Assembly: GCA_017453685.1 (NCBI GenBank)
Contig: JAFTEL010000125.1
Coordinates: forward strand, 5,025 to 69,024
From: Clostridia bacterium
Lineage (GTDB): Bacteria > Bacillota > Clostridia > Oscillospirales > Acutalibacteraceae
Direction: 5' to 3'
Length of the DNA stretch: 64,000 nt
Part shown: piece by piece, positions 3,908 to 25,899 of the stretch
Layout: every line of letters starts with the position of its first letter
Position numbering within the stretch: the first letter of the stretch is position 1
Notes under the pieces: model-generated
The model's input: the letters and a program-made list of their open reading frames with translations, nothing else
What the model was told of the DNA's origin: nothing
Databases searched by the model: none
Program-made: the position numbers and the translations under genes

Positions 3908-4729
3908 TCAGCAAGCGCTGAACTCATGGGTGATCCGCGTGTCGACGTACAGAATCTCGGCGGCCTTTTCCAGCTCGTTCGGGCAGAACATAAACTGATC
4001 GATCCGCGCCAGCACGTCGGGTTCCAGCCGATCCGTCTGATCGACCAGATCGACCATGACGCCGAGTGAGAGGAAATCTCTGCCGTAGAGGAACAGGCAC
4101 TGCAGGTCGGAATTGCCCTGCTCAAAGATGTAGCCGTTCAAATCGGAGCCGTCGGTCGGGCCGAGCTCGGTGACTGCGGCACGGCGGTAAAGGGTTTTGA
4201 CCATTTTAAACAGCTTGGCAAACGGCTGCACCTTGCCCGCGATGAGTTCAATGGGCTTGGTCATTTGCATCACGGTGTTGCCCAGACGGGACATCCAGTA
4301 GTGCATCTGCAGTTCCCGCGCCGCGCCCTCCGGCGAACGGCCGACCATATCCCTGCCGTAAGCATTGCGGTAAAGATCAAGGCCAAACTGCGCGAGTACG
4401 TCCCAAAGCTCCTGCCGATAGACGTGATCTACGCCTAACTGCGTGTTGTCAAAGGAATAACAGAATTCGCTCAGGTGCGCCGTGATCGGGACGGGAACAG
4501 AGTCGAAGACAAACGTGATGTTGTATCGGTCGCCCTCTTCCTCTTCCACATCTTCCTCCCCTTTCGGGCTCAGCACAGCGGCAGCGGAGCAGATAAACTG
4601 CCTGCCGTTGAAGGAATACGCGATCTCTTCCTCAAACACGACGTCCGCCGCAGCGCCGATCAGAATAGCAGAAGCGGCGACGGAAAGCGCAAGCACGACG
4701 GCGATCAGCCGAACAGCGATTCGTTTCAT
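3908..4729 (-). CDS. Hypothetical secreted protein
   Basis: Start trimmed to the ATG at 4729, preceded by GGAGG with an 8-nt spacer. The signal peptide is MKRIAVRLIAVVLALSVAASAILIGAAA. An acidic stretch 'EEDVEEEEGD' follows. I recognise no family. Confidence 0.6.
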   Translation of the reverse strand: MKRIAVRLIAVVLALSVAASAILIGAAADVVFEEEIAYSFNGRQFICSAAAVLSPKGEEDVEEEEGDRYNITFVFDSVPVPITAHLSEFCYSFDNTQLGVDHVYRQELWDVLAQFGLDLYRNAYGRDMVGRSPEGAARELQMHYWMSRLGNTVMQMTKPIELIAGKVQPFAKLFKMVKTLYRRAAVTELGPTDGSDLNGYIFEQGNSDLQCLFLYGRDFLSLGVMVDLVDQTDRLEPDVLARIDQFMFCPNELEKAAEILYVDTRITHEFSAC

Positions 4730-11601: not shown

Positions 11602-11945
11602 TGCTGCTTGAAATTCGACCGCTGACAGAGGTTCTGCGCGCCATGGGACACGACATCCCGCCATCATGCAAAAGCACTACCCCATTTCGCCAAGACGATG
11701 CTGAAGAAATTAGAAGCTGTTCTCAATCTTGCGAATAAGGAGATAGAATTTTTATTAGTCACTTTGTTGTCACCAAGAAAATGATATCTACACATGACGC
11801 CTGAGGTATACCGTGCACATACGACAATATATATTGTGAAATATATAATCCACTCACCCGCCGTCGAGGCGGCGGATATCACCGCCCGCAGGGCAATTTC
11901 ACCTGCACAGCAGATTTCATCCACCCGCAAGGGTGGATTTCATTG

Positions 11946-11979: not shown

Positions 11980-12066
11980 TGGTGCCGGTGACCGGGGTCG
12001 AACCGGTACGCTGTTGCCAGCGAGGGATTTTAAGTCCCTTGCGTCTGCCTATTCCGCCACACCGGC
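11980..12066 (-). tRNA. tRNA-Leu (anticodon UAA), type II with long variable arm, CCA encoded
   Basis: Hand-folded. Acceptor GCCGGTG/CACCGGC, anticodon stem AGGGA/TCCCT with loop CTTAAAA, variable arm CGCTGGCAACAGCG, T arm ACCGG-TTCGACC-CCGGT, discriminator A plus CCA. 87 nt. Confidence 0.95.
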
Positions 12067-23053: not shown

Positions 23054-23752
23054 TCATCTGGCGGATTTGGCCATGCTTTCCCGCTCGGCGATCAGCGTCA
23101 GCAGTTGGTCGCCGACCGATTCGGTCATGGCGTCGTCGCCGCGGGAAACCGCGTCCGACAGGACGGTGAAATTGGCGTAGATCTTCGCTTCCACCTCGTC
23201 CAGCGCGGGCGTGCTGGTTTTGTCGGCATAACGGAACGCTTCATACACCTTGTTTGCCATCGCTTTGGTCTCGTCGGTTTTCGCCTTGGCGATGAGCCCT
23301 TCGGCCGCCGTCGTCATCTGGCGGATAAACGCGGTGTTGACGGCAACCTTCTGCCCGATATCCGTGACCGCGGTCGCGGCGGTATCGGCTTTGACGACAG
23401 CGATGGCAAAGAAGCCAAGGATGAGCACCGCCGCCAGGATCGCCACGAAGAACGGCACGCCGGGGATGAAGGCAAGCGCGGTGCACACGAGCGCCGTCAC
23501 GATCACGCAAGATTTGCCCAACGACAGCAGCGGCAGATTCAAGAAGACTTTTTCTTTGTTCTCTTCGTTCAGGCATTTGTAACCCAATCCGAGCTGGATC
23601 AAAAAGGCAGCCAGCACGGCGACGTAGCAAATGATAAAGGTCGCGTCGATTTTTTTGCCGGGGATGAACATGGCGGCAACGAAAGCGAACACACTGAACA
23701 TGACCACGGCGATCGCCCAGATGATCGCAAAATTCTTAAAATACTTTTTCAT
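23054..23752 (-). CDS. Membrane protein (4 TM) with C-terminal soluble alpha-helical domain
   Basis: Start trimmed to the ATG at 23752, with GGAGG 5 nt upstream. The protein begins MKKYFKNFAIIWAIAVVMF.... The C-terminal half is Ala/Lys/Glu/Thr-rich. I recognise no family. Confidence 0.7.
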   Translation of the reverse strand: MKKYFKNFAIIWAIAVVMFSVFAFVAAMFIPGKKIDATFIICYVAVLAAFLIQLGLGYKCLNEENKEKVFLNLPLLSLGKSCVIVTALVCTALAFIPGVPFFVAILAAVLILGFFAIAVVKADTAATAVTDIGQKVAVNTAFIRQMTTAAEGLIAKAKTDETKAMANKVYEAFRYADKTSTPALDEVEAKIYANFTVLSDAVSRGDDAMTESVGDQLLTLIAERESMAKSAR

Positions 23753-23770
23753 AATTACCTCCAACTAACT

Positions 23771-23802
23771 TAATGCGGAATGCGGAGTGCGAAAGGCGGA
23801 AT
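23771..23802. repeat. Left arm of 32-nt inverted repeat flanking the four-helix-bundle gene
   Basis: TAATGCGGAATGCGGAGTGCGAAAGGCGGAAT, made of four AAKGCGG-like heptamers. Confidence 0.9.
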
Positions 23803-23837
23803 TATGGGTCGCTTCGCTCCGATTTCATTACGCACAT

Positions 23838-24227
23838 TCAGTTTGAAATGCTCTTTTGCGTTTTTGTGATAGCTTTTAACAATTTCATCAATTCATTACA
23901 GTCGGCATAAATGCTTTCAAAGGATGATTTGTCGATATAATTACTCTCATACAGAAGTTCAAGCCAATAACCCGTTTCGGCTGCTTCTTTGAGAGCGATA
24001 TTCATTTTGGCATAAAAGTCGGCTTTGGTCTGCCCACATTCTGCTTCGCAAATGTTGGCTCCGATGCTTGTGCCGGAACGGAGAATTTGTTTGGACATAA
24101 CATACTCATTCTTCTCCGCAGTGAGAAACTGATAAAGACGAATTGTTCTCAAGGCAAATTGTTTTGCCTTGTTAAGAACAATGTTTTCGTTTTCTTCATT
24201 CCGCACTCCGCATTCCGCCTTCCGCAT
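23838..24227 (-). CDS. Four-helix-bundle protein (23S rRNA intervening-sequence protein / bAvd family)
   Basis: '...ILRSGTSIGANICEAECGQTKADFYAKMNIALKEAAETGYWLELL' is the family signature. Start set at the ATG at 24227-24225, which overlaps the upstream TAA (TAATG). The longer track ORF runs into the upstream gene. Confidence 0.85.
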   Translation of the reverse strand: MRKAECGVRNEENENIVLNKAKQFALRTIRLYQFLTAEKNEYVMSKQILRSGTSIGANICEAECGQTKADFYAKMNIALKEAAETGYWLELLYESNYIDKSSFESIYADCNELMKLLKAITKTQKSISN

Positions 24228-24229
24228 TA
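24198..24229. repeat. Right arm of 32-nt inverted repeat
   Basis: Reverse complement reads TAATGCGGAAGGCGGAATGCGGAGTGCGGAAT. It matches the left arm at 27 WC + 2 GU of 32 positions when folded as RNA. It contains the SPFH stop codon and the 4HB start codon. Confidence 0.9.
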
Positions 24230-25633
24230 GATTTTCTCGCCGCATTCCAGGCAGAACTTGCCGCCCGCGGGCACGTCGGCGCCGCACTTCGGGCATTTAT
24301 TGCTCAGCGGCGCGCCGCAGGCGATGCAGAATTTGCCCTTGGGCGTGGCCGCGCCGCACTTGGGACAAACGACTGTATCCGCGGAAGCCGCGGCGACTTT
24401 TTCACCGCAGATCAGGCAGAATTTCGCGTTGACGGGCAGATCCGCGCCGCATTTGGCGCATTTCACACCCGGCGCAGCGGTATTGTTCGGCTGATTGCCG
24501 GTCATGCCGCCGAAGATGCCGCCGATCTGGCCGCTCATCGCCTGCGCGGCCTGCAGGCCGACGCCCAAACCGAGGATGTCGCTCATGGTCGAGCCGCCCG
24601 CGCTGCCACCGCCGCCGGAGCCCATGTTGCCGATGCCTTCGGCGTAAGCCTTCTGCACTTCCGCCTGAACGTAGTCTTTCTTGGTGATGCCCTGCGCCTG
24701 CATGACCTGCGCTTCGGCAAAGCCCGCCTGACGGGTCGCTTCCGCTTCGGCCTGCGCGGCGATGATCTGCCGTTCGGCGGCGCGTTTGGCGACTTCGGTC
24801 TGCGTGGTCTGTTTTTCCAGCTCGGCCACGCGCTGCGCGGCGGCGATCTGCGCCTGTGCCTGCGCCTGCGCCGTGCGCACCTGCGCTTCGGCAGCCGCCA
24901 TTTTGGTCTGCAGCGCAATGGTATGTAACTCGCGGATGCGCTTGAAATTCGGATCTTCCTCGGGCAGAACAACGGTCGTCAGATAAAAGTTCGGTACCGT
25001 CAGCCCGTATTCCGCAAAGCCGGGCTCGATCTTCGCTTTCAGCGTGGCGGAAAGCTCGTCAAGGTGTTCGTCGACCTCAAGAATATTGATGCCGTTCTCT
25101 TTGATCGCGGCGGTGAGATTGGATTTGACGGCGGTCGAGATCATGGGGCGGAACGAGTTTTGCAGCGACTTGGTGAAGTTCGCGCCGCTCTCGCCCCAGG
25201 CGATGCCGTTCATGGTGCCGACCAGCTTGATGAGCAATTTGAGCCCGTCGCTCACCTTGAGGTTGAGCGAGCCGCTCGCGCCGATGTCGAGCGGGATGCC
25301 GTATTCCGCTTCGAGGTAGCGCACCTTGCTGTCCGTGCCCCATTTCAGGTCCATCTGCACGGTCTGATTGATGAAATAGACCTCGCAGTGGAACGGCGTT
25401 TCGTCGCCGGTGGCGCGGTTGAGGTATTTGCCGATCTTGGGGATGTTCTGCGTTTCCAGCGTGTAACGCCCCGCGCGGAACACGTCAAGCGCCTCGCCGT
25501 TCATGAAGAAAACAGCCTCCTGGCTCTCGTGAACGATCAGCTGCGTGAGGGCGTTGAAATCCTCACAGGGGTGCTTCCAGATAAAGGTGCTGTTGTCGCC
25601 TTCATATTTGATGATATCCGCAATTTTTGCCAT
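24227..25633 (-). CDS. SPFH/band-7 domain protein with coiled-coil, Gly-rich linker and three C-terminal zinc ribbons (YdjI/COG4260-like)
   Basis: N-terminus 'MAKIADIIKYEGDNSTFIWKHP...LIVHESQEAVFF', then an A/Q/E-rich coil. Three CxxC-x9-10-CxxC units: KCAKCG...CLICG, VCPKCG...CIACG, KCPKCG...CLECG. Confidence 0.85.
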   Translation of the reverse strand: MAKIADIIKYEGDNSTFIWKHPCEDFNALTQLIVHESQEAVFFMNGEALDVFRAGRYTLETQNIPKIGKYLNRATGDETPFHCEVYFINQTVQMDLKWGTDSKVRYLEAEYGIPLDIGASGSLNLKVSDGLKLLIKLVGTMNGIAWGESGANFTKSLQNSFRPMISTAVKSNLTAAIKENGINILEVDEHLDELSATLKAKIEPGFAEYGLTVPNFYLTTVVLPEEDPNFKRIRELHTIALQTKMAAAEAQVRTAQAQAQAQIAAAQRVAELEKQTTQTEVAKRAAERQIIAAQAEAEATRQAGFAEAQVMQAQGITKKDYVQAEVQKAYAEGIGNMGSGGGGSAGGSTMSDILGLGVGLQAAQAMSGQIGGIFGGMTGNQPNNTAAPGVKCAKCGADLPVNAKFCLICGEKVAAASADTVVCPKCGAATPKGKFCIACGAPLSNKCPKCGADVPAGGKFCLECGEKI

Positions 25634-25869: not shown

Positions 25870-25899
25870 ATGATACTACAACTGTAATGCATTTGTCAA
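25870..25899 (-). promoter_or_regulatory. Promoter of the RHH-SPFH operon with candidate RHH operator repeats
   Basis: Minus strand reads TTGACA (25899-25894), 18-nt spacer, TATCAT (25875-25870). Direct repeats TGATAC at 25863-25868 and 25871-25876 overlap the -10. Confidence 0.45.

Follow-up and report, generated by a model that had tools for sequence, protein, structure and literature searches.

Introduction

Intervening sequences (IVSs) that carry an open reading frame (ORF) are reportedly found in the 23S rRNA of Leptospira and Coxiella burnetii and in a Xanthomonas/Brucella type (Ralph & McClelland 1993; Warrier et al. 2016, PMC4990558). The protein family concerned, PF05635 (S23p), includes bAvd, a nucleic-acid-binding cofactor of the reverse transcriptase (RT) of diversity-generating retroelements (DGRs). 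PF05635 is discussed in a DGR review (PMC10053308). The IVS of Coxiella is 428 nt long, has a 28-bp terminal stem and is cut by RNase III; two to three tandem GACAGAT heptamers and a degenerate one lie just before the ATG of its S23p gene (PMC4990558). In this study, we describe a unit of IVS-like build in a protein-coding operon of a Clostridia bacterium of the Acutalibacteraceae. The DNA analysed is a 64,000-nt stretch of contig JAFTEL010000125.1 (positions 5,025 to 69,024), hereafter called the window. The 459-bp unit occupies 23771-24229 of the window on the minus strand. It is a gene cassette between an SPFH gene and a membrane-protein gene, and it is probably one copy of a widespread family of promoterless cassettes.

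Arms, repeat structure and RNA fold of the cassette

The cassette consists of four parts:
24198-24229, minus strand: upstream (5') arm, TAATGCGG AAGGCGG AATGCGG AGTGCGG AAT, found by direct reading, repeat search, heptamer parse and duplex fold
23838-24227, minus strand: four-helix-bundle gene (S23p / 23S_rRNA_IVP / Avd family), 129 aa from the ATG, with the stop TGA at 23840-23838
23803-23837, minus strand: 3' spacer from the ORF stop to the downstream arm, holding GCGAAGC (23817-23811), which is conserved in loci L001 and L085
23771-23802, minus strand: downstream (3') arm, ATTCCGCC TTTCGCA CTCCGCA TTCCGCA TTA, a copy of the 5' arm, inverted

A preliminary description of this DNA had paired the two 32-nt arms by hand, with 27 Watson-Crick pairs, 2 G-U pairs and 3 mismatches. 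The inverted-repeat search and the duplex fold confirmed this count. The search returned arms of 32 nt each that were 84% complementary (27/32 Watson-Crick), with 395 nt between them. The RNA duplex of the arms (ViennaRNA duplexfold) had 29 pairs, 27 Watson-Crick and 2 G-U, and 3 positions were unpaired or mismatched. Its energy was -44.7 kcal/mol, compared with -19.8 +/- 3.6 kcal/mol (minimum -30.8) when the 3' arm was shuffled (n = 500). In the fold of the full 501-nt minus-strand transcript, the arms paired with each other. The minimum free energy (MFE) of this fold was -143.2 kcal/mol (z = -3.99), and none of 100 shuffles was equally good. Folded alone, each arm was unstructured and the 3' spacer had no stable RNA fold.

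The arms are built of heptamers, as had been proposed. Arm 1 parses into AATGCGG AAGGCGG AATGCGG AGTGCGG AATGAA and arm 2 into AATGCGG AATGCGG AGTGCGA AAGGCGG AATTAT, in each case four units and a partial fifth. The 7-nt-shifted register that had been read by eye was also recovered by the inverted-repeat search, as a second pairing of 30 nt with 83% complementarity. On the minus strand, the letters across 24229-24198 read ...GAGAAAATC-TAATGCGGAAGGCGGAATGCGGAGTGCGGAAT-GAAGAAAAC..., and those across 23802-23771 and beyond read ...ATTCCGCCTTTCGCACTCCGCATTCCGCATTA-AGTTAGTT-GGAGG-TAATT-ATG. The 5' arm holds the stop TAA of the SPFH gene (24229-24227), the in-frame ATG of the ORF (24227-24225), which overlaps this stop as TAATG, and a GTG (24206-24204) that is codon 8 of the ORF. 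The GGAGG of the membrane-protein gene (23762-23758) starts 8 nt past the 3' arm. Both the overlap and this spacing hold on direct reading.

The GC content is 38-43% within the cassette and about 60-65% outside; cassette and flanks compare as 42% with 60%. A search of the 64-kb window alone for the heptamer motif gave 4 matches against 1.21 expected, which was equalled in 4 of 100 shuffles and is weakly above chance. Neither a second cassette copy nor another period-7 array was found within the window. At Rfam gathering thresholds, the window contained no rRNA, and no known RNA family was matched at the cassette.

The enclosed gene and its protein

The stem encloses exactly one gene, a 129-aa four-helix-bundle gene, as the preliminary description had it. 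The encoded protein matched PF05635 (3e-29, 101.8 bits; cut-off 33.8), which was its only Pfam match, TIGR02436 (4.3e-32, 110.6 bits; cut-off 24) and PDB 2RLD (3.9e-37), a Bacteroides protein deposited with five chains. PDB 2GSC (XCC0516) was likewise deposited with five chains, and for Xcc0516 a homopentameric toroid has been described (Lin 2006, cited in PMC4990558). The alternative start at the GTG of codon 8 would give a protein of 122 aa.

The ratio of nonsynonymous to synonymous substitution rates (dN/dS) was computed on ORFs corrected for tblastn read-through past in-frame stops in the arms. In four groups of loci with common flanking genes it was 0.099, 0.088, 0.087 and 0.069, the last being the window against its L001 orthologue. 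These values, about 0.09, show a protein that is evidently kept by purifying selection. The identity of the S23p protein follows that of the upstream host protein (84% vs 86%, r = 0.72), and the copies are old residents that have been inherited vertically since insertion. In many pairs the synonymous sites are near saturation, yet the heptamer arrays of the arms are still clean, so that the arms are under constraint or undergo continual homogenisation.

Host operon and insertion site

The neighbouring features of the operon are as follows:
25870-25899, minus strand: promoter-like site TTGACA-18-TATCAT upstream of the RHH gene, a consensus match alone (11/12 matches)
25837-25652, minus strand: RHH gene, by profile match (RHH_1)
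24230-25633, minus strand: SPFH/Band_7_1 gene with C-terminal zinc ribbons, 468 aa, by profile match; its stop is the first triplet of the 5' arm
23054-23762, minus strand: downstream membrane-protein gene, 232 aa, no Pfam match, with Shine-Dalgarno sequence GGAGG at 23762-23758 and ATG at 23752

The promoter-like site is the likely start of a transcript of the RHH gene, the SPFH gene, the cassette and the membrane-protein gene. No terminator-like site was found on the coding (minus) strand inside the cassette. Both observations support the earlier placement of the unit inside an mRNA operon.

The site was compared across a set of SPFH homologues (P0001-P0120). All four contigs of the same species carry the cassette, and a metagenome scan added one further filled locus. 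The filled orthologous sites are those of the window, L081-85 and L001. In L001, whose SPFH protein is 89% identical, and in L085, the cassette stands at the identical site and both arms are changed from AATGCGG to AAKGCGA. The sites of L086, L088 and L089 (SPFH 80, 73 and 66% identical) are empty. Here a homologue of the membrane protein follows 6-14 nt after the SPFH gene, and no PF05635 sequence is present in these three loci. Among cassette-less relatives, the membrane gene begins 6-37 nt past the SPFH stop. The orthologous loci therefore differ by presence and absence of the cassette, a comparison that the preliminary description had named as a check. The filled and empty sites together show what is evidently an insertion, in an ancestor of the lineage, exactly between the SPFH stop and the ribosome-binding site of the membrane gene.

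Locus L087 (SPFH 77% identical) has a gene-less lone array of 4.5 units at the exact junction (3914-3950, GAATTAAGAATGTAGAATTAAGAATT). Its units are GAATTAA GAATGTA GAATTAA GAATT, a heptamer unlike that of the window. This solo array could be either the footprint of a loss or an independent visit to the SPFH junction.

Other features of the locus were observed. The last zinc-ribbon codons of the SPFH gene (24243-24251, minus strand; CTG GAA TGC GGC) read GGAATGCGG, which is the heptamer motif of the cassette, 13 nt upstream of the arm. In the MFE fold, the GGAATGCGG stretch pairs with the outer 3' arm. The same codon motif is present in L086 and L088, which have no cassette, so the motif is older than the insertion. 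It may be a coincidence or microhomology. The direct repeats D1-D3 (window 24230-24463) are reiterated coding modules of the SPFH zinc ribbons (CxxC) and lie outside the cassette. In L081 (1167-2523), the SPFH protein was called as 394 aa and its tblastn match was split into residues 1-367 and 386-468, a sign of a possible frameshift or indel in the linker that precedes the zinc ribbons. Elsewhere in the window, a Gut-1 RNA (RF01706, 71.8 bits, above the Rfam gathering threshold) at 11871-11945 and an adjacent tRNA at 11983-12066 lie on the minus strand.

Related cassettes in gut and rumen genomes

One genome per species was scanned, which gave 80 loci with proteins 46-77% identical to the window protein. 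They come mostly from rumen and gut Clostridia; the others are from Bacteroidales, a Spirochaetia metagenome-assembled genome, Dialister and Anaerolineae. The best flanking inverted repeat scored 14 or more in 71 of the 76 loci that could be tested (median 24.75). Among the control intervals in the identical loci, 0 of 76 reached this score (median 8, maximum 11). This recurrence is the decisive point that the arms are not a chance inverted repeat, an explanation that the duplex shuffles also ruled out.

In its canonical form the arm reads T + (AATKCGN)x4 + AATTA, and its most frequent length is 33 nt. Across the gut clade, the AAT of heptamer positions 1-3 is 97-99% conserved, position 4 is either G or T, and position 7 is T, G, C or A by lineage. 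The heptamers are AATTGAY or AATTAGG in Bacteroidales and AATGAAG or AAATAAG in Anaerolineae. The minimal elements are 427-428 nt long and lack the 3' spacer, which is thus optional in the family. Their ORF starts 0-20 nt inside the inner edge of the left arm, which often provides the Shine-Dalgarno sequence (AATTAAAGGA...ATG), and the TAA of the ORF lies in the inner edge of the right arm. In the window, L001, L063, L066 and L070, the ORF continues into the arm because the heptamer has no stop codon. For the same reason, the ORF of the window can start at the TAATG overlap or at the GTG of codon 8. The GC content of the cassette is lower than that of its flanks in 68 of 68 loci (median 33% vs 47%).

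Two further ideas about the anatomy were rejected. A sub-terminal hairpin with a GAA triloop occurs in some members, in gene-less elements and, as GCGAAGC, in the window. The minimal elements lack it, and it therefore does not belong to the core. That the heptamers supply stops and starts in all three frames met with a modest enrichment (13/36 contexts vs 6.6 +/- 2.1 shuffled); the idea fails for the AATGCGG units of the window and for GGGAATC and GGTCGGA units.

Genomic contexts

After dereplication, the cassettes are spread over at least 36 distinct contexts in the genomes. Their upstream neighbour has the same orientation in 63 of 66 loci (33/35 dereplicated contexts). In 53 of 63 loci, the upstream ORF ends between -40 and +10 nt from the start of the arm, and most commonly its TAA serves as the arm's first triplet. 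Downstream, the neighbouring gene shares the cassette's orientation in 45 of 56 loci, with a median of 14 nt from the end of the arm to the gene start. The junction between a parE/gyrB-like and a parC/gyrA-like gene is occupied in 13 species of Acutalibacteraceae. Other occupied pairs are asd/dapA, argC/argJ, relA/spoT-dtd, brxC/pglX, araD/araA, ispD-glycosyltransferase, accB/accC, hsdS/hsdR and RND adaptor-pump, and DUF1156/Swt1-HEPN is occupied in two phyla. The cassettes sit at the junctions of tightly linked gene pairs.

Eighteen PF05635-type genes inside cas operons, for example between cmr3 and cmr2, have been read as Cas-associated (PMC3936711). Seen as members of such a family, PF05635 genes in cas, restriction-modification, BREX, acc, par, arg or dap operons are probably lodgers rather than functional partners.

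Distant homologues

A tblastn search against plasmids gave 31 records, from which 13 independent loci were examined. They belong to Cyanobacteriota, Bacteroidota, Spirochaetota, Chloroflexota and Bacillota. In all 13, inverted heptamer arrays flank the gene, and the heptamer sequences are unrelated:
Monoglobus: AATTAGG
Euhalothece: ACCAGTG
Treponema saccharophilum: GAAAGNG, in a 345-nt array
Nostoc HK-01 and N. punctiforme: GGTCGGA
Bernardetia: ATTAGTG
Dolichospermum and N. flagelliforme: AATTCGT, in a perfect inverted repeat of 33-35 nt
Anabaena cylindrica: AAAAGTA
Chlorohelix and Gloeocapsa: GATTTTA
Chondrinema: CAGTGAA
Planktothrix: GATTTAC and AATCCCC

In Monoglobus pectinilyticus (L090, NZ_OY725736.1, 2001-2336), the armed PF05635 gene separates hsdS from hsdR in a type I restriction-modification system. 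The gene table of the plasmid, itself known to be incomplete, does not list it for this stretch. The AATTCGT unit is identical in cassettes of rumen Clostridia and in arrays of cyanobacterial plasmids; either convergence or horizontal spread between very different habitats could explain it.

The Xanthomonas loci were recovered from the aligned fragment of PDB 2GSC (XCC0516). The gene of the XCC0516 homologues lies between accB and accC, within inverted GGGAATC arrays. On the left stands the array GGGAATC GGGAGTG GAGAATC GGGAATC; its inverted counterpart on the right adjoins the ATG of accC. Across lineages, the period of 7, a modal number of about 4.5 units and the inverted layout around the PF05635 gene persist. 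The window cassette belongs to a widespread family that pairs the PF05635 gene with inverted heptamer arrays; two homologues without arrays (L100 and L101) are exceptions.

Gene-less arrays

Arrays without the gene are present in related genomes, where extra copies occur within a few kb of the cassette. Hairpin elements were found in L072 (2455-2594), L054 (2988-3105) and L020 (2313-2594), and solo 32-nt arrays in operon spacers or over stop codons in L013, L027, L080 and L005. The elements of L072 and L020 stand at the same site in two Ruminococcus species and hold GTCCAC-GAA-GTGGAC triloop hairpins. Their interiors are inverted relative to each other, which indicates that the arms recombine. 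L020 also has three tandem copies of the left arm and the hairpin module. Megablast with the cassette of N. flagelliforme gave 25 array matches on an 805-kb plasmid, 38 on the 69-kb Dolichospermum plasmid pAfl69 (L102) and 10 on a plasmid of Tolypothrix PCC 7601; plasmids of Tolypothrix PCC 7712 and of Microchaete likewise had about 10.

It had been considered that the arms might be a generic intergenic repeat, scattered at many loci and unrelated to the gene family. The first part stands, since the same arrays occur without the gene in related genomes. The second part does not: every PF05635 gene examined in these lineages lies within an array pair, and hence gene and arrays are parts of a single system. 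The suggestion that the unit could be a mobile cassette gained support from the empty sites, the at least 36 contexts, the GC contrast in 68 of 68 loci and these gene-less derivatives.

Proposed mechanism and alternative explanations

We believe, with a probability of about 0.6, that the unit is one copy of a widespread family of promoterless cassettes, which insert at gene junctions, are transcribed with the host operon and are looped out by an RNase III-type stem. The cassette would be transcribed solely within the host operon, and this would explain the near-universal co-orientation with the upstream gene. In the mRNA, the arms would pair into a stem of about 32 bp with the cassette looped out. 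The looping would bring the SPFH stop to about 10 nt from the GGAGG of the membrane gene, a spacing as in the empty sites. The stem would be double-stranded RNA of the kind that RNase III cuts in rRNA IVSs, and by analogy RNase III processing here is plausible. The ORF starts in the 5' arm or at its inner edge, so its translation would need melting of the stem by upstream ribosomes, or cleavage. Ribosomes that terminate at the TAA at the stem base would have to open the outer stem, and the translation of S23p would then be coupled to that of the upstream gene.

Several observations weigh against this proposal. Both arms are arrays of one unit, so their complementarity mostly follows and pairing in several registers is guaranteed; arm complementarity is not in itself proof that selection acts on pairing. 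The left arm and the reverse-complemented right arm were 89% identical over 2298 positions. Transversions made up 184 of the 252 mismatches (73%), and 133 of the 252 were G/T at heptamer position 4. Mismatches compatible with G-U pairing were equal by strand, 35 for the sense RNA and 33 for the antisense RNA. Agreement of paired heptamers at position 4 was 63% against 60% when the register was shuffled (p about 0.09, all loci); it was 72% against 63% after dereplication (p about 0.005). Agreement at position 7 did not differ significantly from shuffled order. We therefore rejected RNA-specific covariation, given the lack of G-U strand asymmetry and the weak register test, and compensatory evolution of individual pairs is not claimed. 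No transposase was found near the cassettes examined, there was no consistent target-site duplication across loci, and the right outer flank was variable. No near-identical copies were seen in different contexts; the top identity was about 78-84%, the highest with the truncated ORF of L049. Mobility is thus inferred from distribution. The homologues of L100 and L101 (GenBank MT835815 and MT835590) have no heptamer arrays. In Anabaena cylindrica pANACY.01 (L104, 1171-1518), the AAAAGTA-armed gene is anti-oriented between cas2 and cas1.

Some routes of mobility were considered and set aside. The TA at both ends had been read as a possible target-site duplication. These letters are the first and last letters of the arms themselves, and the outer base on the left is, with few exceptions, the T of the TAA that ends the upstream gene. 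A TAA duplicated on both sides would fit the window but does not fit other loci, and the empty sites are too diverged to define one. Recent transposition was rejected for Nostoc flagelliforme, where copies 99.8-100% identical have common flanks and represent a segmental duplication. Carriage by phages was also rejected: no relatives were found in IMG/VR, and the two GenBank matches labelled 'UNVERIFIED Bacteriophage sp.' (L100 and L101) look bacterial, encoding an M18 aminopeptidase, an FGGY sugar kinase and a CHAP/dockerin protein.

The arms may instead act on DNA. They would then be terminal inverted repeats made of reiterated protein-binding sites, moved by a recombinase or transposase encoded elsewhere or by hairpin or cruciform chemistry, and the RNA stem would be a by-product. 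The excess of transversions, the lack of a strand-specific G-U excess and the weak register compensation suit this explanation. So do the gene-less hairpins and solo arrays at other intergenic sites (L072, L054, L013, L027, L080), the arm recombination seen in the inverted interior of L072 vs L020, and the solo arm of L087 at the SPFH site, as hairpin-mediated excision would leave. However, a consistent target-site duplication is lacking, no transposase or recombinase adjoins the gut and rumen cassettes examined, and near-identical copies in different contexts were not found. The 95% co-orientation and the stop in the first triplet of the arm would be unexpected unless strong selection is added. 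We hold this explanation to be possible but rather unlikely.

Another possibility is that the pentameric protein binds the arrays carried by its own transcript or DNA much as TRAP does, each protomer taking up about 7 nt and each ring five motifs. The arrays would then be operators, through which the protein would control stem formation, translation of its own gene or translation of the adjacent genes. bAvd is itself a nucleic-acid-binding protein. The five chains of 2RLD and 2GSC and the toroid of Xcc0516 are consistent with this, and the canonical arm has five AAT motifs at 7-nt spacing, with the AAT conservation of the gut clade given above. The period of 7 and the number of about 4.5 units are kept while the heptamer sequence differs by lineage, the protein is under strong purifying selection, and arrays abut start codons without Shine-Dalgarno sequences at the Xanthomonas accC and at position 6005 of L080. 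However, array length varies, reaching 13-49 units in Euhalothece, Bernardetia and Treponema. The heptamer type also switches within one orthologous site without an obvious large change of the protein, and the association between protein clade and heptamer type is confounded by common ancestry. The switch occurs jointly in both arms, as between the window and L001 and among the loci at the argC site, and it points to either homogenisation or re-invasion of the site. Binding of this kind seems rather unlikely. Both this explanation and DNA-acting arms are compatible with the looped-out cassette proposed above.

It is improbable that the gene is an ordinary resident of the host with regulatory hairpins, which the cassette-less relatives have lost. 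The long vertical residence, the purifying selection and the presence in every contig of the same species agree with such a gene. However, it would have to account for at least 36 unrelated contexts that are always gene-pair junctions, for a GC content below that of the flanks in 68 of 68 loci, and for homologues 50-77% identical across gut and rumen genomes of Bacillota, Bacteroidota, Spirochaetota and Chloroflexota. In other organisms the ancestral pairs lie side by side, and rRNA IVSs of like architecture have been published. That the gene is the Avd gene of a DGR is highly improbable: PF05635 includes bAvd, but the gene tables of the same-species contigs list no RT in the roughly 3 kb to each side, where the genes are those of an aldolase, RHH, SPFH, the membrane protein, GH42 and a cellulase, and a repeat search of 23500-24500 gave no pair of template and variable repeats (TR/VR).

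We also offer, tentatively, a broader idea that we regard as doubtful. PF05635 pentamers and heptamer arrays might form one self-perpetuating bacterial system, with 7 nt per protomer and the gene cassette as its master copy. The protein would be needed to spread, maintain or tame the arrays. Its footprints or derivatives would include the ORF-bearing rRNA IVSs, the GGGAATC repeats of Xanthomonas, the GGGGATT repeats of Nostoc, the STRR-type repeats of cyanobacteria and the excess of heptanucleotides that has long been noted in prokaryotic intergenic regions. Cassettes would persist at translationally coupled junctions because the stem loops them out of the mRNA.

Comparison with known systems

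Avd proteins of DGRs share with the window protein the Pfam family and the pentameric four-helix-bundle fold class. They differ in that DGRs have an RT and a TR/VR pair, which were not found here, and heptamer arrays are not a described feature of DGRs.

RAYTs are HUH tyrosine transposases, and the repetitive extragenic palindromic (REP) sequences associated with them are palindromes; REP singlets and inverted doublets occur without the gene in intergenic regions. The cassettes resemble REP/RAYT systems in having a single gene between inverted short repeats and gene-less copies dispersed through the genome. They differ in that PF05635 is a small four-helix bundle without a known catalytic motif, unlike an HUH protein, and in that the arms are tandem heptamers.

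Correia/CREE, ERIC and other repeats resembling MITEs (miniature transposable elements with inverted repeats) lie in intergenic regions, are co-transcribed and are processed at their hairpins. Like them, the cassettes are small, have terminal inverted repeats, are intergenic and co-transcribed, have gene-less derivatives and would form long RNA hairpins that are potential RNase III substrates. As in MITEs, terminal inverted repeats and a presence/absence polymorphism are found, but a target-site duplication is not. The window cassette further differs in its selected non-transposase ORF, its heptamer-array arms and the absence of a TA duplication, and in the 64-kb window its gene-bearing form is single-copy or nearly so. 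With no transposase and no target-site duplication, it is not a classical MITE or a RAYT/REP element. Correia repeats are cited in PMC4692102.

The ORF-bearing 23S IVSs are closer. A PF05635 gene between terminal inverted repeats built of heptamers, as in the Coxiella IVS (PMC4990558), bears out the IVS-like architecture that was first proposed for this locus. The S23p/PF05635 family is common to both, and the minimal relatives (427-428 nt) are of the size of the Coxiella IVS (428 nt). Inverted termini give a stem of about 28-32 bp, tandem heptamers stand by the ORF start, and the ORF is oriented as the host transcript. In each structural feature that was tested, the unit agrees with these IVSs. 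However, the window cassette lies at a protein-operon junction and not in helix 25 or 45 of 23S rRNA. Strong purifying selection acts on its ORF (dN/dS about 0.07-0.1), while that of Coxiella is in decay, and RNase III excision, shown for rRNA IVSs, would apply here by analogy. In a literature search that reached few subscription journals, the Coxiella IVS was the one case in which PF05635 had been described together with heptamers. The unit thus seems to be an IVS-type element living in mRNA operons, and its family is apparently undescribed. The origin and mobility of ORF-bearing rRNA IVSs, open since 1993, could be one face of this cassette family, and the function of the abundant 'four helix bundle protein' family outside DGRs could be a second.

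The third face could be the over-representation of intergenic heptamers in Xanthomonas, Nostoc, Beggiatoaceae and others. Orphan heptamer repeats reportedly include the STRR repeats of cyanobacteria (Mazel 1990). Intergenic heptamer repeats have been described as GGGAATC in Xanthomonas and GGGGA(T/C)T in Nostoc (Rehm 2015, PMC4692102), with 70 convergent inverted heptamer pairs in X. campestris (PMC4692102), and as TAACTGA in Beggiatoaceae, cyanobacteria and Bacteroidetes (MacGregor 2015, PMC4679880). Both papers treat the repeats as G-quadruplex or regulatory motifs and do not mention S23p or a four-helix bundle (PMC4692102, PMC4679880). Like the arms of the cassettes, these repeats are tandem 7-nt units in intergenic regions, occur in few to many copies, often as convergent inverted pairs, and often abut stop or start codons. 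Direct links exist: the Xanthomonas S23p gene lies within a GGGAATC inverted pair, and the AATCCCC of the Planktothrix cassette is the complement of GGGGATT. We consider the link to the orphan heptamer repeats the most interesting lead, and the accB-S23p-accC locus of Xanthomonas, with its crystallised protein, offers a tractable system.

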